NCBI GenBank assembly: GCA_030149205.1
Contig: JASBSB010000003.1
Coordinates: forward strand, 30,001 to 62,000
Direction of reading: 5' to 3'
From: Candidatus Heimdallarchaeota archaeon
GTDB lineage: Archaea; Asgardarchaeota; Heimdallarchaeia; Heimdallarchaeales; Kariarchaeaceae
DNA: 32,000 nucleotides
The translations under genes were made by a program, and so were the position numbers. The notes below the pieces were generated by a model, which saw only the letters and a program-made list of their open reading frames with translations, was not told the DNA's origin and searched no databases. Shown here piece after piece: positions 2,378-12,073 of the stretch. The stretch's first letter is position 1, and every line of letters begins with the position of its first letter.

Positions 2378-3808
2378 TTAATACGACAAGAAGACTTTTG
2401 ACTCATTTACAAATAATGACAGCATCTCATGTATCTCAGTAGTCATATTTAACACCCCATTTGTCAACGGATTTGCATCATTTTCTGAGAGAAGAAAGTT
2501 TATTTGAGCTGCAGTTGCCCTCAGTAACCCTTTCATCTGGGTAGCCTTGACTAGGGCATTCACTTCCAACGGGTAAATGGCTACAGATAACATAAATTCG
2601 TCATTGCCTGATCTAGTTCTTGAATTTTCAAGAGTGAATATTATATTAATAGATGCAAATTCATTATCTGCATGAATAAATGGGTCAAATTCGTTCACTC
2701 CAGTTGTATCCATTAAGTTCGGAATGATTTTAAGTTTCTCCAGCAATAAGTCATTCGAGGTAGGAGGTGCAGAAAAAACGAGCTTGGGTCCAATAATTTC
2801 ATCAAAGTAAGAGAGGATTACAAATACTTTCAAATCTTCATTCCCACCCATAAATATTTTAGGAGTTCTAGGGTCAAAATTTATCACTACTCGGTAAAGG
2901 TCTAACTTCTTGTGGTTTGTAGAATACATCTTTGCACTAGGCCAACTCACTTCGGAATTTTTCAAATAATTTGGCCCTGTTAGTGAAGGCCGTGTAGTAC
3001 TTGTCTTACTTAATAGCGAGGTAAGTTCTAATTGTTCCCAACTCGGAAAAACAAAATCTACTTGTTGAGAAACATCCCCAAAATTTCGAACAAAAGATTG
3101 AAAACTCTCTTTTAGTAATGATTTAAGAAGGTCAATTGGAATTTTTCTCTTAATTGAGTTTAGCGTGCGTACAAAGAGGGAATCCAGTTGTCTAAATACA
3201 ATTTTCTGCTTTTGCAGAGAATTTATTCCCTCATGAACTTTTATTTGTAAAACTTGATCACTTACTAAAAATCTATCAGGGTACTTTTTCTGTAAGTTGT
3301 TAAATTGACGAGTGACAATTTTTTCAATTTCTATTCTGTAGCTTGTTGCAGCATAGCTTATGACAATTTGATAAAAAACCGAATAAAGGAAAGGAACAAT
3401 TAATAACTTTGATTCACTGTACTTCAATTGTGAAGCTAAAAATCTTGATAAAACAAACCCCAGATCATTTCTGGTAAAGGGTTTATACAAGACATCCTTT
3501 GCCCCATTTCTGAGAAGATAATCCACCTCTATTTTGTTTTGTAGATCTGATAAAACCACCACATAAACATCATTGTTTATAGATAACAGACCCTTGAGAA
3601 CATCTAGTGATTTCATATCTGGTAAAGTGGTATCTAGAAAAATTATTTTTGGATGTAGATTTCCGGATGCTCTGAATGAATCCTTTCCCTCAGCATTCGT
3701 ACCGATGACATTAAAACCGAGGAAACTCAATTCGTCCAGTAACAATTGACGAATATAGATCGAATCATCAATTATTAAGACTGTCTTCAGAATATCCATT
3801 AATTCCAC
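2378..3808 (-). CDS. Response-regulator receiver domain + helical middle region + C-terminal uDENN/longin-like (FLCN/NPRL2-type) domain
   Basis: Receiver motifs are intact: LIIDD, FLDTTLP (phospho-Asp), VVLS, YKPF. The C-terminus has VILSYFDEIIGPKLVF and FTLENSRTRSGNDEFMLSV. The start is GTG 3808 or ATG 3799. Confidence 0.8.
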   Translation of the reverse strand: MELMDILKTVLIIDDSIYIRQLLLDELSFLGFNVIGTNAEGKDSFRASGNLHPKIIFLDTTLPDMKSLDVLKGLLSINNDVYVVVLSDLQNKIEVDYLLRNGAKDVLYKPFTRNDLGFVLSRFLASQLKYSESKLLIVPFLYSVFYQIVISYAATSYRIEIEKIVTRQFNNLQKKYPDRFLVSDQVLQIKVHEGINSLQKQKIVFRQLDSLFVRTLNSIKRKIPIDLLKSLLKESFQSFVRNFGDVSQQVDFVFPSWEQLELTSLLSKTSTTRPSLTGPNYLKNSEVSWPSAKMYSTNHKKLDLYRVVINFDPRTPKIFMGGNEDLKVFVILSYFDEIIGPKLVFSAPPTSNDLLLEKLKIIPNLMDTTGVNEFDPFIHADNEFASINIIFTLENSRTRSGNDEFMLSVAIYPLEVNALVKATQMKGLLRATAAQINFLLSENDANPLTNGVLNMTTEIHEMLSLFVNESKVFLSY

Positions 3809-3875: not shown

Positions 3876-5138
3876 TCAAGCTTGATTATTATACGTCCCT
3901 TCGTCAGCCAACAATTCACTAATTCTTAGTAACTGGTTGTATTTTGAGACTCTTTCAGTTCGAGCAGGTGCGCCTGTTTTTATCCTTTCTGCACCCCACC
4001 CTACAGCAAGATCTGCGATAAAGGTATCCTCAGTTTCTCCTGATCGGTGGGATATTACAACACCCCAGTCCTTTGACTTTGTGAGATCAAAGGCTTCTCT
4101 TGCCTCAGTGAGAGTTCCAATTTGATTGACCTTTAATAACAAATAGTTCATTGCATTTTTATCAATTGCTGTTTTAATTCTATCTACGTTTGTCACAGTA
4201 AGATCATCGGCGACGACTGCAATATTTTTAGGTAGCTTTGAGATGAGTTGAGAGAAGGAGGAGAAGTCATTTTCATCAAACGGGTCTTCAAGAGATATTA
4301 ATGCTGGATAGGTTTTTGTCAGGTCAACAAAATAGTCTACAAGTTCTCCTGAATCAAAATGCTTTTCGTCAAGGTGATATTTTCCATCTTTGTAAAATTC
4401 TGATGCTGCAGCATCTAGCCCAAAATAAAATTCTTTCTTTAGACTGTAACCTGCTTCATTCACAGCATGGGTCAATGCGTCTAAAGCGTCTGAAGCTAAA
4501 TCTATTGGTGGTGCAAATCCCCCTTCATCACCTACATTAGTCGCAGTTCCCCCATATTTTTTCTTCAGGTAGACTTTCAATGTGTGGTAGACCTCAGAGG
4601 CAGCACGAATGGCTTCAGGGAAAGTGTCGAACCCTAAGGGTAAAATCATGAATTCTTGTATTGCAAGCTTTCCCCCTGCATGTTTACCACCGTTAATTAC
4701 GTTTAACATAGGTGTTGGAATTCTTTTACCAGAACCAAGATATTGAAATAAAGGAATATTTTTTTGATTTGCTACAGCCTTAGCGCTAGCAATACTGACT
4801 CCTAAAATTGCATTTGCCCCTAAATTAGCTTTGTTTGGGGTTCCATCAAGTTCTATCATTAACTTGTCTAATCCCTCTTGGTGAGATGCATCGAATCCTA
4901 TTACTTTGGGGCCAATAATTTCTTTAATATTTTTAACTGCATTTAATACCCCTTTACCGAGATATCTTTTACCTCCATCTCTTAGTTCAACAGCCTCATA
5001 TTTTCCTGTTGATGCACCTGAAGGGACAGTAAATCTTCCGGTTGAATGAGAGGTGGAAACTTCACATTCTACAGTTGGATTTCCTCGAGAATCTAAAACC
5101 TCTCTTGCATGAACTTTCTTGATTTCAAATTCATTCAT
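3876..5138 (-). CDS. eno: Enolase (phosphopyruvate hydratase)
   Basis: AREVLDSRGNPTVE, VPSGASTG, GGKH, QEFMI, GDEGG, DAAASEF, EDP, LLKVNQIG, SHRSGETED and KTGAPARTER; catalytic and Mg-binding residues are present. Confidence 0.99.
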   Translation of the reverse strand: MNEFEIKKVHAREVLDSRGNPTVECEVSTSHSTGRFTVPSGASTGKYEAVELRDGGKRYLGKGVLNAVKNIKEIIGPKVIGFDASHQEGLDKLMIELDGTPNKANLGANAILGVSIASAKAVANQKNIPLFQYLGSGKRIPTPMLNVINGGKHAGGKLAIQEFMILPLGFDTFPEAIRAASEVYHTLKVYLKKKYGGTATNVGDEGGFAPPIDLASDALDALTHAVNEAGYSLKKEFYFGLDAAASEFYKDGKYHLDEKHFDSGELVDYFVDLTKTYPALISLEDPFDENDFSSFSQLISKLPKNIAVVADDLTVTNVDRIKTAIDKNAMNYLLLKVNQIGTLTEAREAFDLTKSKDWGVVISHRSGETEDTFIADLAVGWGAERIKTGAPARTERVSKYNQLLRISELLADEGTYNNQA

Positions 5139-5212
5139 GGTTGTTAAATAAATCAGTTTTATTAATGCTATGGGATATTTCTCAAGATCAATATTTCATT
5201 TTTATGTGAAAA

Positions 5213-6343
5213 TTAGACAACCCAATCTTTAATTTGGTTTTGAGAAAGGTTAGCTAATTCAGATAGCTTTTGTGCATGATCTGTAATTTCTTGTAAGGAT
5301 GCCGCTTGTTCTTCTGCAGCGGCTGCTGCTTCTTGAGATGAGGCAGCTGTATTCTCTGCGACCCCAGCAATACTGTTGACTGCATTTACTATGTTTTGTA
5401 CTGCACCCCTGATGTTTGAATTAATATTATTGGTTATCTCAGATATAGAAACAGCTGCACCTTTAGATTCTTTTGAAAGTTTTCTAACCTGTTCAGCGAC
5501 AACTTGAAATCCTTGTCCAGCAGCACCTGCACGAGCAGCCTCAATTGCTGCATTTAAAGCAATTAAATTCGTTTGCTCGGCTATGTCTAGGGTTATGTTT
5601 GAGGTTGTAGAAATCTGTCTGATAGAGTCCTCTACAATGAAAACCATCTCAGATAAGATCTTTGAAATTTCATCGATCTGACGAACTTGTTCAGCAGCAC
5701 CTTCTGCTATTGTCTGGATTGTTCCAGTTACCTCCTCTGTGGTTGCTGCAACCTCTTCACTTCCTGATGCAAGTTCTTCTGCTGAATCAGCAACCTGCAT
5801 TGCAGATGATTTTATTGCCGCAATTACCGTTCTTACAGTATTTGCAAGCATTCTGTTAGCTTCAACCAACCTTCTCGCTTCCCCGCTACCCCTCGTCCTT
5901 CCTAATATTTCTACGGAAAGGTTCCTCTCAGCGAACTGTGTAGACTGTTCCGCAACTGCTTTTAAAGGTTTCACGACTCTTTGTTCTAATGTTATCGCTA
6001 AATAAAATGATACAATGAATATTACAGCGGTTATTAAAAATGCCAAATTAGTATTATTGATGGTATAATTTGTGGGTATTGATGTCGTCTGAGCACCCAA
6101 GGTTGTTAGCAGGTAGAAGAAAACTCCGAAGGCAATATATCCCCCAATCATTGCTACAGTGAATGCACGTCTTGAAATGTTAGATGTAAACCTCAAGCGA
6201 TCTATAAAGGGATTTATTAAAGGGAGCTTGAAATTGAAAACTGGTAAGATAATTAAAAACAAGACTAATAACACAGCTTCATAAATTATAATTTGGATCA
6301 GAAGATTCGTTACCGAAGTTACATCGAAGTAAATATAACCCAT
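5213..6343 (-). CDS. Methyl-accepting chemotaxis protein with about 3 TM helices, HAMP and a short signalling domain
   Basis: [36 protein letters not shown] hairpin tip; HAMP-like [20 protein letters not shown]; methylation-consensus segments [10 protein letters not shown] and [10 protein letters not shown]. Confidence 0.95.
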
Positions 6344-6437
6344 ACTTCTACTCTATTTCTTGACTTTTTATCCCTTCCCAACAAAAATTATATTTGTTCT
6401 ATATTCATGAAAAAAATCTAAGCAATGAATTGAGAAG

Positions 6438-7469
6438 TTACGCATATGTAGAATTCATCAGAGTTTGTCTTATGGCTTCTTTCAAGAGAGGGATGTTCTC
6501 CCCTGTCTTAGAACTAACTTTTAAAAAGGCAAACTCTGAATCTGAGAATTTTAGTTGACTCTCTAAACCTGAGATGAGTCTTTGAATTGATGCTTCGGAA
6601 ACCTTCTGTTTTAAATCAGACTTAGTCCCCACGATAATGAAATCTATTCCCATCCCTTTATTTTTTAATAGCTCTTTTAGCCAATACTCTATTCTAAGAA
6701 AGGTTGAATTTTCTGACAGATCGAATACAATGACACCTAGAGAGGATTGAGAAAGAAAACTGGTTCGTAAGGGTATGTAGAAATCCTTACTACTAATATC
6801 AACTAATTGCCCAAAAATGTGGAAGTTATATCCCTCATATTCAATATCTTCAATATTTGCTCCAACTGTTGTTATGTAATCTTCTACAAAGTTTTTTTCG
6901 AGCAAAGCTCTCTTTAGGTTAGTTCTCCCAACTCCTGGCTCTCCTAAGAAAACAACCTTGGCTGGGTTATCCTTAGACCCTATTATTAGCTTCTTGCTTT
7001 TTGTGTCTTTCTTCTGAATTGGGAATTGTATAATTTCTTCTTTCTCTTCTTCTACTTTAGATTCAGAGTTTACCTCAACTCCAAATGTTGAATAACCCTC
7101 AGGAACAAACTTTTGTGGTGTTGGGATATTAAAAATTGTTGACTCTTCGGCTGCGGGATTTTTATGCATAAGACGAGCAGTGTCAGTTAATTTGTTAAAT
7201 TCCTGTTTCTTATTAAAGAAATAGTCGTGGATTAGTTCAGGACTAATAACAAAATTTGGTTCTTCAGGATTATCTTCACCTGTAGACTGAGACTGACTTT
7301 TTATCATCTTCTCAACTCTTTTCACTTCACTTTCATAATAAATTAATTCTTGCTTGTATTTTGCCTCTGAGATTACACCTGAGTTAACCTTGTTAAACCT
7401 TCCGCTAATCCATTCGAAAAGCTCTGCAAGGTAATCATCCCAGTCGGAAGAATCAATTTCTTTATCCAC
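6438..7469 (-). CDS. Rab-like small GTPase domain with an acidic N-terminal extension of about 170 aa; G1 and G3 are degenerate
   Basis: G1 GEPGVGRT, G2 YITTVGA, G3 LVDISSK, VIVFDLS...TFLRIEYWLKEL, G4 VGTKSD, G5 VSSKTGENI. GTG start. No C-terminal Cys. Confidence 0.88.
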   Translation of the reverse strand: MDKEIDSSDWDDYLAELFEWISGRFNKVNSGVISEAKYKQELIYYESEVKRVEKMIKSQSQSTGEDNPEEPNFVISPELIHDYFFNKKQEFNKLTDTARLMHKNPAAEESTIFNIPTPQKFVPEGYSTFGVEVNSESKVEEEKEEIIQFPIQKKDTKSKKLIIGSKDNPAKVVFLGEPGVGRTNLKRALLEKNFVEDYITTVGANIEDIEYEGYNFHIFGQLVDISSKDFYIPLRTSFLSQSSLGVIVFDLSENSTFLRIEYWLKELLKNKGMGIDFIIVGTKSDLKQKVSEASIQRLISGLESQLKFSDSEFAFLKVSSKTGENIPLLKEAIRQTLMNSTYA

Positions 7470-7489
7470 AGATTTTTATTGTTGAAGTA

Positions 7490-7505
7490 ATAAATAAGCT
7501 TTTTC
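7490..7505 (-). promoter_or_regulatory. BRE-TATA-like element (GAAAAAGCTTATTTAT) upstream of the GTPase gene
   Basis: A purine-rich run followed by TTATTTAT, 21-28 nt upstream of GTG 7469. Confidence 0.5.
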
Positions 7506-7535
7506 AACATATTTAACTATATTTTCTGTGTTCGT

Positions 7536-8291
7536 TCATTTCTCAGTCAAATATTCATGTTCGATTTTGGTTTTAATCTTGTAGAAAAGCATCAACATCT
7601 GGTTTTTGTTCTCAGTCGCGTAAATTATTTTCCCTGCAAGTATGTAATTCGTATCATAAATTCTTGATAAAACCAGTGATTCTTTAAATGAATGGTTTCC
7701 CTGAAAAAATACGTTTGATTCTCCAACCCAATCTTTTTCGAATGGTAGTTGAGAGCACAAGTTCATCAACAGTTCCATAGAATCCTCTTCTCCAAAAAAC
7801 TGATGTATCAAACCCCGCTCTAGGTGAATTAAAGATAAATTATTAAATTCGATCTCCTCAAAATTATCTAAGACGTGGACACTGGAAAGAACAGAGTTTG
7901 TGATTTGTAAAAATTCAGTGGAATTTGATAATATTAACTTAATTTGGTCTATAATTGAAGGAGAGGGGACATAACTAAATATTACTGTATCATCTAACCT
8001 ATCACCAATAAATAAAATTACCTTTTCCATAGTTTTTTTCGTATGGGCTATATTATCAAATTTATCTGTAAATGCAACGTAGGATAATCCTTTATGTCCA
8101 ATCACTAAGATACGTAATGCTCCAATTTCTGCCTTCTCAAACTCATAATCTCTATCTAAATTGTCGGTAAACATTATAAGAGCCCCAACCAGTCCGGTCA
8201 TAAGTGAGGAATCAACTGCTATAGAATCATCATCAAAAAGCTCAAAACCGATACCTGAGCCAGAGTCTAGCACCAAAAGCTTTTTTATCAA
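7536..8291 (-). CDS. Longin-domain protein, probably two tandem longin-like domains
   Basis: Domain 1 reads b1 KKLLVLD, b2 GIGFELF, a1 DSSLMTGLVGALIMF (D-x-x-L-x-x-G-x-x-x-A-L-x-x-F, as in small longins), three strands, then a2. The C-terminal half repeats a b-b-a-b-b-b-a pattern. TTG start. Confidence 0.7.
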   Translation of the reverse strand: MIKKLLVLDSGSGIGFELFDDDSIAVDSSLMTGLVGALIMFTDNLDRDYEFEKAEIGALRILVIGHKGLSYVAFTDKFDNIAHTKKTMEKVILFIGDRLDDTVIFSYVPSPSIIDQIKLILSNSTEFLQITNSVLSSVHVLDNFEEIEFNNLSLIHLERGLIHQFFGEEDSMELLMNLCSQLPFEKDWVGESNVFFQGNHSFKESLVLSRIYDTNYILAGKIIYATENKNQMLMLFYKIKTKIEHEYLTEK

Positions 8292-8527: not shown

Positions 8528-9400
8528 ATGTTTGGGAATGAGAATGCTGATTCAAAATATGCATGGAAGGCAAAATATGAACAGGCCTCACAGCATGCGA
8601 ATGGTTTGCAACAGAGAATTCACGAGTTACAGGGGGTAATTAATGAGTATGAGGAAGCCATCAATAAATTGATTGAATCAAATAAAGGTCTAGAACAAGA
8701 TAATGGATATCTTCGTAAAATGATAGAAGAGAAAGATTCAGAGCTCAATGCATCACGAGAACCAGTATCCAAGCAAAATAAAACTACCTTGCAAGCTTCC
8801 CAAATTGTGTCACCTATTAGTTCACAAAGTAACTCCAACTCGTATCCAATAATACAGAGTCTCTTGATCCCTATGATGTTGAGAGAATTTCATGAAGATG
8901 ATTCAGATAATTTTGAAATATTCCAACAATTTGTGGAGGCTGTTATTCAGGAGGGACAGACTGAGGCAAAAATTGTAGGACTACTTGTCAAACATGGGGG
9001 AAAAGGACCTATTAATAAGGTAAAAGAGCGAATTAATTCTTCAGACTTTGATTTTGCACTTGATCAACTCACAAGATCAAACATTATAAAAATTCATCAA
9101 AATGAAATCATCCTCTCTACTATTTTTGAAGGAGGGAGCTCTGAGATGGATTGGGACTCAATGGACGTTCCGGACATGTTTGAAACATTACAGAAAATTG
9201 TGGAAACAACACCTCCAACCGAATTGGCAGGAATACTGGAGGGATTCCGAGATTCTCTACAAAATAGAGACATTCCGGCAACCACTGTATTCTTTTCCAT
9301 AAGAAAAACAATTGAAAGAGTAAAAAAGGACAATATCACAGTAAATGCACTGAAAAAAGAGATTAATGAGTGGGCTGGAAAAATATTAGGTTCCTTTTAA
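8528..9400 (+). CDS. Hypothetical protein: N-terminal coiled coil, S/Q-rich linker, winged-helix-like segment, C-terminal helical domain
   Basis: Heptad pattern over residues ~10-78. EAKIVGLLVKHGGKGPINKVKERI...FALDQLTRSNIIKIHQNEII resembles a wHTH. A TTTATT box lies about 27-32 nt upstream. Confidence 0.7.
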   Translation: MFGNENADSKYAWKAKYEQASQHANGLQQRIHELQGVINEYEEAINKLIESNKGLEQDNGYLRKMIEEKDSELNASREPVSKQNKTTLQASQIVSPISSQSNSNSYPIIQSLLIPMMLREFHEDDSDNFEIFQQFVEAVIQEGQTEAKIVGLLVKHGGKGPINKVKERINSSDFDFALDQLTRSNIIKIHQNEIILSTIFEGGSSEMDWDSMDVPDMFETLQKIVETTPPTELAGILEGFRDSLQNRDIPATTVFFSIRKTIERVKKDNITVNALKKEINEWAGKILGSF

Positions 9401-10168
9401 TTAAACCATGGTAATACCATATTTTATAAGGAGAGGTTCTGCTTCATCGTAATTATCAAGTTTGACAATTTTCATGCTATTTTTGTAAAATTCTAAGTTG
9501 AGGTTGTTAACCGCATTGTTCACACGTCTTACTTTGAAAGGTGAGCTTGTATGTTTTGCAAACAGATAGATAGTCTTTTTCCCCTCGTCAATTAACACCA
9601 CATCGTGTTCTTTCTTAACGAAGTTATTATCACGATATTCAATCATTTTTTCAGAATTTTCGTCAAACCAGAATGCCCTCGTTTGTGGTGACGTGACAAG
9701 TTCAATTATATGATTCAATAATTCCTTACCAAAATTTTCATCAATTGACTCCTTCCTTACTTTTTGAGAATTTTTTGAGAAAAACATCTGAAGATAGGGT
9801 TCTATTAAACCAGTTGCCCTTCTAACATCACTTATCCTTTCTTTAGGAAAAATCAGTACAACTCCTAAATGTGTACCATGATCAACCAACCTAGAGTCTG
9901 AAGAACTATTATAGTCAACGAGTGTTAGAAAAAATAAAGCTTGAACATCTTTTCTTCCTTTCACTGGAACAGGTCCTATAATTTCACTCTGTTCTTTCTC
10001 TCTTCCCTCCATAAGTCCAGCCAATGATAATAAGTGGGCTGCTGTTATGAAAGCAAGGTCTTCAGAAAGTGTTGAGACATTAGAGATAATTTCTGGCCCA
10101 GCTTCAGTCACTAATGTAACGAAGATTCCTTGAATTAAACTTTTAGGATCTTTTATTTTGTATGACAT
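9401..10168 (-). CDS. uDENN/longin-like domain fused to a C-terminal gelsolin-like domain
   Basis: N-terminal GIFVTLVTEAGPEII, IIGPVPV and ALFFLTLVD...DSRLVDHG; C-terminal HDVVLIDEGKKTIYLF...SS followed by a long helix, matching the gelsolin repeat. Confidence 0.68.
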   Translation of the reverse strand: MSYKIKDPKSLIQGIFVTLVTEAGPEIISNVSTLSEDLAFITAAHLLSLAGLMEGREKEQSEIIGPVPVKGRKDVQALFFLTLVDYNSSSDSRLVDHGTHLGVVLIFPKERISDVRRATGLIEPYLQMFFSKNSQKVRKESIDENFGKELLNHIIELVTSPQTRAFWFDENSEKMIEYRDNNFVKKEHDVVLIDEGKKTIYLFAKHTSSPFKVRRVNNAVNNLNLEFYKNSMKIVKLDNYDEAEPLLIKYGITMV

Positions 10169-10200: not shown

Positions 10201-10213
10201 TTTATTAAGCTTA
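10201..10213 (-). promoter_or_regulatory. TATA-like element TAAGCTTAATAAA upstream of the uDENN-gelsolin gene
   Basis: TTAATAAA lies 33-40 nt upstream of ATG 10168 and overlaps the palindrome TAAGCTTA (10206-10213). Confidence 0.45.
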
Positions 10214-10255: not shown

Positions 10256-12073
10256 TCAATATGATTTTAAATTATCTAAACTCGTGTTTACTATCATCAG
10301 AGGTTTTTTCATCTCAAAGATTAACGGGTTCAAAACCCATGTAAATGGATCGAATGCGACCACCCTATCTGCTGTGCTTAGGGGAAACTCGCCATTTTCA
10401 TTAAATCCCAGAAGCAAACCTGAATAGAGGGTTAATTTTTGATACAAAATAGTATTATCTTCAATTTCGTCTCCCTGAAGTCCATCAATAAAAGTAAGAT
10501 ATAGATTATTCCAAGGATTTTTCCCAGTCAATAATTGCTCGGAAAGGGCTAGTAAAATTTTGATTTGGTACCAATGATGTCTTTGAAATGTGAATTGATC
10601 TGCAATTGAATTAATCAACTTGGTGCCAAGGTTGATCGACTCTCTGTTATCTACCAGTACTCCGTTTGTCAGTAATATTTCAGAAAACAACAATGTTTCT
10701 TTAGGAAGGACAGCTAAGTTTTCACCCTTAAACAAAAATCCGAATCTTTTTAAAAATTCTTGAATATTAGGTTTCTGTCTGATATATAGGTCAGTCACAG
10801 CAACAACAATTAAACAGGTATTAAGTATATCACGGAATTGTAAAAACCTGGAGCTTTCTGTGATAGATTTCAAATCATTTAATGTTGTTAAGACATTAGT
10901 GAGCTGTTCTGTTAAAATTTCAAAATATGTTTGAAATAAATTTTTAATTCCTGGTTGGTTTATTACTATGACCTGAGGAAAAGTTGTGACATTGGGGTAT
11001 CTACCAGATGTGAATTTGTTATAAAGTTGCAATACGTCTTGTGTGTGCCTGCCAATATCAGATTTAATCCTCCAGATCTCGACTTCATCAATTAATCGTT
11101 TCATCTCAAGGTCTGAATTTGGGTTAAAGTTCTTGTTAATTTTACCTTCGTCATATAAACGTTTTAATTCATCTATTATTGATTCTACCTTATTACATTT
11201 ACTATCAATAAGGTCAGCGACAGTGTACACAATCATCTCAATTGAAGTTAATTGAATATTATTATTTCCAGTAAAGTTTTCCGGAAGGATTAACCCGCTA
11301 ATAACGTCAGCTTTTAGTCCTATATTAACCAGAAACTGATTTTGATAAAGGATAGATTGAAGGATATCCTTTATTGAATCAAAGATTATTTGTGAGTTTA
11401 AGAGTTGATCATAAGCGATAAACGTTAATATTGAAAAATATGTCTCTACAAATTGGTTTAGGAGTCCAAAATTTTCAATAGATTCCTCTAACCATACGCC
11501 TAAAGATGCAACCGGAATATTGGGTAATCCAACTGCAGGAGACGCAAATAAGCTAGCTCTTGCAAGGAAGTAATTATAAAACAAACTAAACTCTTGAAAA
11601 GACTTAATTGAATTCTTTGTAATCTCAATCGTTGGGATGAAATCAACAGAACTAGTCTCCAAATTGGTAAGAACTTGAGCTAGGATATTGGTTAGCCCAA
11701 TAATTTCTGTGTCTATTGTTAAAGCAGAGGTTGTGCTAAGACTTGCCAACACATAATTCATCAAGGTTTCAATTTTAAGATCAATTTGTTTATCCATCCC
11801 TGAAAGTTCATTAAATAATGAAACTAAACCCTGTTGTAAATCAAGTAAGGCATCACGTTTAGTTTGAATGGGAATCTTATCAAAAGACCCTATAGTGGAA
11901 ATAAGTTCGTGTAAATTACTCAGCTTATTTTTGATAACAATAATTTTCCCTTGTGTCTCCGTTTGTCTTTGGATATAATTTAGAAGTTCTGATAGAACTT
12001 CAGATGCCCCATTTGTCAGCTCACTAAATGGACCTACAGGAATTGTATTCATATCTAATAAAATAAGAGACAT
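10256..12073 (-). CDS. Hypothetical 605-aa protein, predominantly alpha-helical, L/I/N-rich
   Basis: Long ORF with amphipathic helical periodicity and no recognisable catalytic motif. A TTTATATA box lies at 12102-12109. Confidence 0.75.
   Translation of the reverse strand: MSLILLDMNTIPVGPFSELTNGASEVLSELLNYIQRQTETQGKIIVIKNKLSNLHELISTIGSFDKIPIQTKRDALLDLQQGLVSLFNELSGMDKQIDLKIETLMNYVLASLSTTSALTIDTEIIGLTNILAQVLTNLETSSVDFIPTIEITKNSIKSFQEFSLFYNYFLARASLFASPAVGLPNIPVASLGVWLEESIENFGLLNQFVETYFSILTFIAYDQLLNSQIIFDSIKDILQSILYQNQFLVNIGLKADVISGLILPENFTGNNNIQLTSIEMIVYTVADLIDSKCNKVESIIDELKRLYDEGKINKNFNPNSDLEMKRLIDEVEIWRIKSDIGRHTQDVLQLYNKFTSGRYPNVTTFPQVIVINQPGIKNLFQTYFEILTEQLTNVLTTLNDLKSITESSRFLQFRDILNTCLIVVAVTDLYIRQKPNIQEFLKRFGFLFKGENLAVLPKETLLFSEILLTNGVLVDNRESINLGTKLINSIADQFTFQRHHWYQIKILLALSEQLLTGKNPWNNLYLTFIDGLQGDEIEDNTILYQKLTLYSGLLLGFNENGEFPLSTADRVVAFDPFTWVLNPLIFEMKKPLMIVNTSLDNLKSY

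Follow-up and report, generated by a model that had tools for sequence, protein, structure and literature searches.

The window analysed here is the whole 32,000-nucleotide stretch of DNA from Candidatus Heimdallarchaeota archaeon (contig JASBSB010000003.1, positions 30,001 to 62,000 of the forward strand). At positions 9401..10168 its minus strand carries a gene (P0001), identified from the list of open reading frames (ORFs) and its translation, that starts with ATG and encodes 255 amino acids followed by a stop codon. The product was found to consist of two domains, and the AlphaFold2 model built on a 21-sequence alignment had a mean predicted local distance difference test score (pLDDT) of 85.6. 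The N-terminal part (residues 7-162; 9683..10150, minus strand) is a longin domain, while the C-terminal part (residues about 162-255; 9404..9682, minus strand) is a single gelsolin-fold domain similar to ProGel. This is a new domain architecture assembled from two known families. The fusion is conserved across the class Heimdallarchaeia, and the family is genomically tied to Arf- and Rag-type small GTPases.

Distribution of the fusion family

No meaningful Pfam match was obtained for the fusion protein or for 21 of its relatives, and a single-sequence phmmer search against the PDB returned no match. An exhaustive HMMER search among 1.84 billion cluster representatives retrieved 29 relatives, nearly all of about 250 residues and aligning from end to end. 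The family profile was also run on 400 genomes of the phylum. It matched 81 of the 82 genomes of the window's class, 77 of these at E ≤ 1e-46, and the matches listed in the class search spanned profile positions of about 1-250. Paralogues were frequent in the class, with up to seven profile matches per genome in several genomes. Three other families of the phylum also yielded full-length matches. In the remaining lineages the matches were weak (E 1e-6 to 1e-14) and probably cover the longin domain only. An unnamed family member of 256 residues is included in the AlphaFold DB.

The genome from which the window derives encodes one full-length copy of the fusion. Three further proteins of this genome (L007, L008 and L009) match the family in the N-terminal domain alone, so this longin type is evidently used again in several architectures.

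Asgard gelsolins are known as ProGel alone, as a gelsolin domain with a C-terminal coiled coil and as two-domain gelsolins (PMC7444086; PMC9433394). For the longins, earlier reports described stand-alone proteins, longin-DENN proteins, longins with an NPRL2 C-terminal domain and two-component fusions (PMC12290439; 10.1101/2020.10.19.343400); neither a gelsolin fusion nor a GTPase operon appears in the main texts of these two works. Longin domains are never mentioned in the papers on Asgard gelsolins (ProGel, 1DGelX, and 2DGel with C-terminal extensions), and gelsolin is never mentioned in those on Asgard longins, roadblocks, and Rag and Arf GTPases. One of the latter states that small GTPase genes of Lokiarchaeon MK-D1 generally lie outside operons with longin genes (PMC10933270). 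In agreement with an earlier note on this DNA, which did not know the fusion as described, no paper reporting a longin-gelsolin fusion was found in a search that left the supplementary tables of large Asgard surveys aside. In Asgard archaea, the regulators of actin (profilin, gelsolins) have so far been studied apart from those of small GTPases (longin, roadblock); here one conserved protein combines both modules.

The two domains

The longin domain was assigned with the AlphaFold2 model, VIA-align and Foldseek. Its elements follow the longin order b-b-a-b-b-b-a-a, with strands at residues 14-21 and 24-30, a helix at 36-52, strands at 63-69, 72-85 and 99-108, and helices at 109-131 and 144-159. 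The top structural match in VIA-align was a Lokiarchaeota longin domain (8yqg_B, Z 12.1), followed by C9orf72-SMCR8 (7o2w_A, Z 11.1), FLCN/FNIP2 (6nzd_H, Z 10.3), and Lst4 (4zy8_C) and NPRL2 (8fw5_B), both with Z 10.0. Lower matches, at Z 7-9, were generic longins, AP sigma/mu, VAMP7, roadblocks, Mon1-Ccz1 and DENND10, the last of which matched the longin part only (Z 7.1, model residues 6-162). Neighbours in the Atlas and the AlphaFold DB carry the names C9orf72, NPR2 and 'Folliculin/SMCR8 longin domain-containing'.

Residue conservation was evaluated over 62 family sequences, and the strongest constraint was found in the loops of the longin domain. The Gly-Pro (GP) motif Gly24-Pro25 at the start of strand 2 (10094..10099, minus strand, as for all residues below) was 100% conserved, and Asp22, which precedes it, 85%. 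At strand 3, the residues of Gly65-Pro66-x-Pro68 (9965..9976) were conserved to 100%, 95% and 98%, respectively. Asp91-x-Arg93 (9890..9898), which the model places in the beta4-beta5 loop, reached 95% at each residue. Further conserved positions were Asn30 (90%) and Gly98 (100%).

A GP motif just before strand 2, beside the arginine finger, marks the longins of the GTPase-activating protein (GAP) type, namely FLCN, NPRL2, SMCR8 and C9orf72; it is missing from adaptin, TRAPP and DENND longins, and Heimdall longins retain both the motif and the finger (PMC12290439). Judged by its model, the N-terminal domain is a GAP-class longin of the FLCN/NPRL2/SMCR8-C9orf72 group. The earlier note had read it as a uDENN/longin-like domain. 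Longin was correct, whereas a generic uDENN domain does not fit the GAP-type GP motif and Arg93. Arg93 itself is a candidate arginine finger. From the modelled loop it would be equivalent to NPRL2 Arg78, FLCN Arg164 or SMCR8 Arg147. NPRL2 Arg78 presumably lies in the corresponding loop.

The fusion protein thus resembles FLCN (with FNIP), NPRL2 (in GATOR1) and SMCR8-C9orf72 in its longin fold (Z 10-11), GP motif and conserved loop arginine. Unlike them, it has only 255 residues, carries a gelsolin domain in place of the DENN or NPRL2 C-terminal domain, and lacks a sequence-level Pfam match. It also resembles the Heimdallarchaeial 'Folliculin/SMCR8 longin domain-containing' proteins, which belong to the same longin class and the same archaeal group and have the GP motif and the arginine (PMC12290439).

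The C-terminal domain was identified by profile searches, VIA-align, Foldseek and hhalign. In the model it comprises strands at residues 163-169, 174-177, 190-194 and 199-203, a helix at 210-228, a strand at 233-237 and a helix at 240-249. This corresponds to the gelsolin fold, in which a mixed beta-sheet lies between a long and a short helix. The motif order given in the earlier note was recovered in the translation: RAFWF (164-168), MIEY (175-178), HDVVLIDEG (188-196), TIYLF (199-203), SS (208-209), the helix 210-228, KIVKL (233-237) and E242-x3-L246-x4-G251. When a profile of the C-terminal half (21 members) was searched against 177,635 PDB sequences, it matched Thorarchaeota ProGel (7c2f_B) over the full length with E 7.6e-6, and villin V3 with E 6e-4. 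The full-length family profile matched the entire chain of ProGel 7c2f_B with E 1e-4.

Structural comparison gave the same nearest relative. Superposition on ProGel 7c2f_D in VIA-align resulted in Z 11.8 and a root mean square deviation of 2.2 Å over 87 of 88 residues, with 21% identity. The next matches were adseverin (Z 10.9) and gelsolin (10.4), then fragmin and villin (Z 9-11), and 2DGel proteins from Thor (Z 9.8), Heimdall (9.2) and Loki (8.9) archaea; the gelsolin-like domain of Sec23a gave Z 8.0. In Foldseek a probability of 1.00 was obtained, with a template modelling (TM) score by target of 0.68. hhalign aligned the family profile with domain 2 of the 2DGel encoded in the same genome, and the register was the expected one (E 0.0047). 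The Pfam Gelsolin family (PF00626) did not match the fusion protein. The C-terminal domain belongs to the gelsolin superfamily as a true, though divergent, member with ProGel as its nearest relative, and the gelsolin fold proposed in the earlier note is borne out.

A second assignment of the C-terminal half, as a small DENN or NPRL2-type domain, had been prompted by Foldseek alignments to NPRL2 and C9orf72 of 170-190 columns. It was rejected, because VIA-align confined those matches to residues 7-162 and placed the gelsolin matches at 162-255. Pfam showed neither a DENN nor an NPR2 match, and the core and downstream DENN modules were absent.

Asp194, Glu177 and Tyr201 align with identical residues of ProGel. 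Asp194 (9587..9589) is the Asp of the gelsolin 'LD' motif, a type II calcium ligand in calcium-binding gelsolins; it is 87% conserved and aligns with the Asp of both ProGel and the genome's own 2DGel. Direct reading places Phe203-Ala204-Lys205 (9554..9562) where gelsolins have W-x-G. In the family, column 203 is L in 59%, I in 16% and Y in 9%, and column 205 is variable. On the long helix (residues 210-228 of the model; 9485..9541), Lys212 takes the position of the calcium-binding Glu, at which the family has R (41%), E (12%) or K (11%). Only the Asp of the D-W-G signature is kept, and the type II calcium site, formed by Asp and the helix Glu, is absent. All three substitutions or retentions described in the earlier note (the kept Asp, the change of the +9 Glu to Lys, and F-A-K for W-x-G) are present in the translation.

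The calcium-independent control proposed on these grounds stands as far as the missing ligands are concerned, but it is not special to this protein, as ProGel is also without calcium sites and calcium-independent (PMC7444086). For the same reason the missing site is no bar to membership in the gelsolin superfamily. The D-W-G signature is retained by ProGel and 2DGel (PMC7444086). The domain is like ProGel (PDB 7c2f), the one-domain prototype of Asgard gelsolin/cofilin proteins, in its whole-domain fold, detectable homology, single-domain form, lack of a calcium site and 'LD'-strand Asp, and unlike it in being fused behind a longin domain of 160 residues, in the loss of W-x-G and in the absence of a Pfam Gelsolin match.

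Linkage to small-GTPase genes and proposed function

Gene context was evaluated over 14 kb around each of 40 family members, drawn from five families of the class, which gave 553 clustered neighbour ORFs at 41 loci. Small GTPases were the only neighbour family that recurred across lineages. An Arf- or Rag-type GTPase gene was found within two genes of the fusion gene at 17 of the 41 loci and within 7 kb at 20. Although related genomes are not independent samples, the linkage recurs in five separate lineages of the family tree. The GTPase model has at least 18 matches in the 3.3 Mb of the window's own genome, so a chance adjacency within 14 kb would be expected in roughly 8% of cases. The genomic association with Rag- and Arf-type GTPases is a further likeness to the eukaryotic longin GAPs, which work as longin heterodimers and stimulate GTP hydrolysis by substrates of these classes.

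In families f3 and f7, two GTPase genes (320-340 amino acids) lie directly upstream of the fusion gene on the same strand. At L099:4974-7759 (plus strand) the two GTPase genes (4974-5981 and 5985-6977) and the fusion gene (6992-7759) form a tight operon with separations of 0 and 11 nucleotides. At L083:4836-8466 (plus strand) the corresponding three genes have spacers of 126 and 98 nucleotides, and a gene for a Ras-type GTPase of 175 amino acids follows downstream. The first operon GTPase matches Pfam Arf with E 1e-36 to 1e-44 and has the motifs GLxxAGKT, DLGGH and NKxD, the DLGGH motif bringing a His to the position of the catalytic Gln. The second retains the P-loop and NKxD and is without DxxG. 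Both have a C-terminal extension of about 130 amino acids with a b-b-a-b-b-b-a-like pattern, the profile of which matched no PDB sequence.

The GTPases flanking the fusion gene in f5 are of the Rag type (Gtr1_RagA, E 1e-34 to 1e-39; HKxD motif). The members of one clade within f5 (L110:6986-9133, plus strand, and L111-L113) are 340-350 amino acids long and have an extra C-terminal region. In one genome two such fusion genes stand in tandem, and Rag-type genes with the HKxD motif flank the genes of this clade. Whether the partners of Heimdall longins are Arf-related or Rag GTPases was raised as a question in PMC12290439, and the operons with two Arf-type GTPases, together with the Rag-type neighbours, name concrete pairs for it.

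Our preferred reading, to which we give a probability of about 0.55, is that of a small-GTPase regulator or adaptor specific to the Heimdall group, in which a GAP-class longin is combined with a calcium-independent gelsolin binding module. In eukaryotes, longin domains of the FLCN/NPRL2 type switch small GTPases off. We infer GTPase binding and GAP chemistry for the present protein. The longin domain would probably bind a GTPase of the Arf/Rag family, in the likeliest case as a GAP or a subunit of one, by means of the Gly-Pro hairpin and the loop with the conserved Arg93, and by analogy a longin dimer may be the acting form. The gelsolin domain would tie the GTPase module to a second partner without a need for calcium. 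Candidates for this partner are actin and the co-occurring alpha-solenoid protein of 605 amino acids described below.

Several observations weigh against this reading. The longin domain has no sequence-level match to Pfam Folliculin, Pfam NPR2 or any PDB chain; a longin-only profile searched against the PDB found no relevant chain, its sole match being MdcA (E 1.3). The proposed equivalence of Arg93 to the eukaryotic arginine fingers is one of modelled loop position only. Longin domains act more often as platforms for guanine nucleotide exchange factors (GEFs) than as GAPs (PMC10933270). No close orthologues of the operon GTPases were found in the window's own genome, where the best match had 32% identity over the G domain. 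In the family tree the fusion protein of the window falls with families f1 and f4 (support 99/97), and this clade has no GTPase gene within two genes of the fusion. The nearest small-GTPase gene in the window (6438..7469, minus strand), three genes downstream, encodes 343 amino acids with a Ras-family domain at residues 171-328 (Pfam Ras, E 3.9e-22), but its P-loop reads GEPGVGRT, with Lys replaced by Arg, and the DxxG motif is missing. It is a candidate partner of the fusion protein.

The longin half might instead be non-catalytic, that is, a GEF-type platform, an effector or adaptor sensing the state of a GTPase (as in Mon1-Ccz1, TRAPP, Ragulator or SRX), or a module with a GTPase-unrelated role such as those of SNAREs or adaptor sigma subunits. 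Longin and roadblock platforms mostly serve as GEFs or scaffolds (PMC10933270), the structural matches at Z 7-9 include Mon1-Ccz1, AP sigma/mu, VAMP7 and roadblocks, and the Pfam signatures of Folliculin and NPR2 are absent. We consider this unlikely, however. The best matches (Z 10-12) are all GAP-class longins, and the GP motif, which adaptins, TRAPP and DENND longins do not have (PMC12290439), is invariant here and accompanied by the 95% conserved loop Arg.

For the gelsolin half, one possibility is a working actin binder that binds filaments from the side like ProGel or cofilin, or bundles, caps or severs them, so that actin would be remodelled under GTPase control and independently of calcium. 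ProGel, to which it is closest in both sequence and structure, has been crystallised with actin and shown to decorate filaments; one-domain Asgard gelsolins are calcium-independent (PMC7444086). The Asgard gelsolin-domain proteins characterised so far all act on actin (PMC7444086; PMC9433394). The window's genome encodes one conserved actin (contig C2, 232002-233135), and the identity of Asp194, Glu177 and Tyr201 to ProGel also speaks for this reading. On the other side, ProGel itself binds G-actin only weakly (PMC7444086). With D-W-G reduced to its Asp, the Trp position is occupied by L, I, Y or F and the Gly is not conserved.

The surface of the domain also has to be considered, as gelsolin domains bind actin at the cleft of its subdomains 1 and 3 and the long helix of gelsolin G1 contacts actin. 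In the family, helix positions 216, 220, 223 and 227 hold conserved hydrophobic residues and are presumably buried, whereas the solvent-side positions 214, 215, 217, 218, 221, 222 and 225 are variable and polar. The genome already encodes a canonical 2DGel, both domains of which retain the complete signature and the calcium ligands, as well as a 1DGelX-like protein. Searches with actin and the 1DGelX-like protein as queries found neither an actin nor a gelsolin gene among the neighbour ORFs of the 41 loci. Actin binding by the gelsolin half is accordingly regarded as doubtful, and GTPase-controlled, calcium-independent actin remodelling as a tentative proposal. If the gelsolin half does bind actin, the protein would be the first prokaryotic example of a small-GTPase switch connected with the actin cytoskeleton.

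This bears on the earlier note, which had proposed actin capping or severing under GTPase control. GTPase control is plausible and has become better supported, because family members adjoin Arf- and Rag-type GTPase genes in several lineages. The capping or severing of actin is weak, because D-W-G is reduced to Asp, the helix face is variable and canonical gelsolins are present in the genome. The note was right on the domains and on the missing calcium ligand.

Alternatively, the gelsolin fold may have departed from actin and become a protein- or peptide-binding or scaffold module in place of the DENN or NPRL2 C-terminal domain, as in Sec23/Sec24. Its ligand could then be the 605-amino-acid protein, a paralogue or the C-terminal extension of a GTPase. 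In Sec23, the Sar1 GAP, the gelsolin domain recognises PPP motifs instead of actin (PMC7594496). The Sec23a match of the model, the loss of the actin-related signature and the variable helix surface point in this direction. The first operon GTPase, with its His in DLGGH, also resembles Sar1, which has His at the catalytic Gln position. Like Sec23 and Sec24 of coat protein complex II (COPII), whose gelsolin-fold domains are not known to bind actin, the fusion protein has such a domain inside a small-GTPase regulator. Unlike it, Sec23 and Sec24 contain no longin, and their gelsolin-like domain is preceded by zinc-finger, trunk, beta-barrel and helical domains, whereas the fusion protein comprises only 255 amino acids.

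The gene of the 605-amino-acid protein (10256..12073, minus strand) lies directly upstream of the fusion gene and is co-oriented with it. The product is an all-helical alpha-solenoid in the AlphaFold2 model (pLDDT 81, predicted TM score 0.85), for which no Pfam or Atlas match and only generic HEAT/ARM/TPR-like solenoid matches (TM 0.1-0.25) were found. The two genes adjoin at L010, L011, L012, L013, L017, L020, L021 and G052. Besides the window, this arrangement occurs in three congeners and in a second genus (G052), and an unrelated metagenomic contig has it as well (32% identity). The 605-amino-acid family was found in 10 of 11 f1 genomes and all three f4 genomes, but nowhere among the other 69 genomes of the class, families f2, f3 and f5-f7 included, a phyletic pattern equal to that of the window's fusion clade. 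Together with the adjacency in several genera, this favours a scaffold role with this protein as ligand.

The adjacency is not universal within f1 and f4, however, and the 87-bp spacer between the two genes contains a TATA-like box of its own by direct reading (TTAATAAA; 10201..10208, minus strand), 32 nucleotides upstream of the fusion ATG, so that it need not be co-transcribed with the 605-amino-acid gene. Actin-binding gelsolins are also clearly closer to the domain (Z 9-12, E 7.6e-6) than Sec23, which has Z 8.0 and no sequence match. A binding or scaffold module without actin is thus possible, and we propose it with reserve. If the domain does not bind actin, the family would represent a GTPase regulator of archaea that, like Sec23, has recruited a gelsolin fold, and would bear on the reuse of gelsolin-type domains before eukaryotes arose.

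The most far-reaching version of the preferred reading takes the family to be the GAP, or a subunit of the GAP, that acts in archaea on pairs of Arf/Rag-type GTPases and couples the GTPase state to actin filaments through the ProGel-like domain. We hold this to be quite improbable. If it were true, the protein would be a one-polypeptide forerunner of both GTPase-controlled actin remodelling and the lysosomal longin-GAP complexes, and would occur in the closest archaeal relatives of eukaryotes.

A second gelsolin-GTPase neighbourhood was observed on contig C4 of the same genome. A gene for a protein of 207 amino acids (L004:1054-1677, minus strand) with an N-terminal canonical gelsolin domain (LD...W-S-G) is divergent from, and beside, a gene for a Rab-like GTPase of 173 amino acids (L004:1860-2381, plus strand).

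Neighbouring genes in the window

Downstream of the fusion gene, a convergent gene for a coiled-coil protein of 290 amino acids, a gene for 251 amino acids (7536-8291) and the gene of the 343-amino-acid GTPase are kept within the genus. The block with this GTPase is conserved in the congeners L076 and L077. The Lys to Arg change in its P-loop was also observed in two congeners (GESGVGRS and GESAVGRT), which retain DLGGQ, unlike the copy in the window. The coiled-coil gene (8528-9400, plus strand) and the fusion gene end on the adjacent bases 9400 and 9401, which leaves no spacer for terminators.

At 2378-3808 (minus strand) the window encodes a response-regulator receiver protein of 476 amino acids, in which Pfam matches the receiver domain only. 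An archaeal pilin, TRAP-beta, Ras/Arf-type GTPases and ArsA/Get3 are also encoded in the window.

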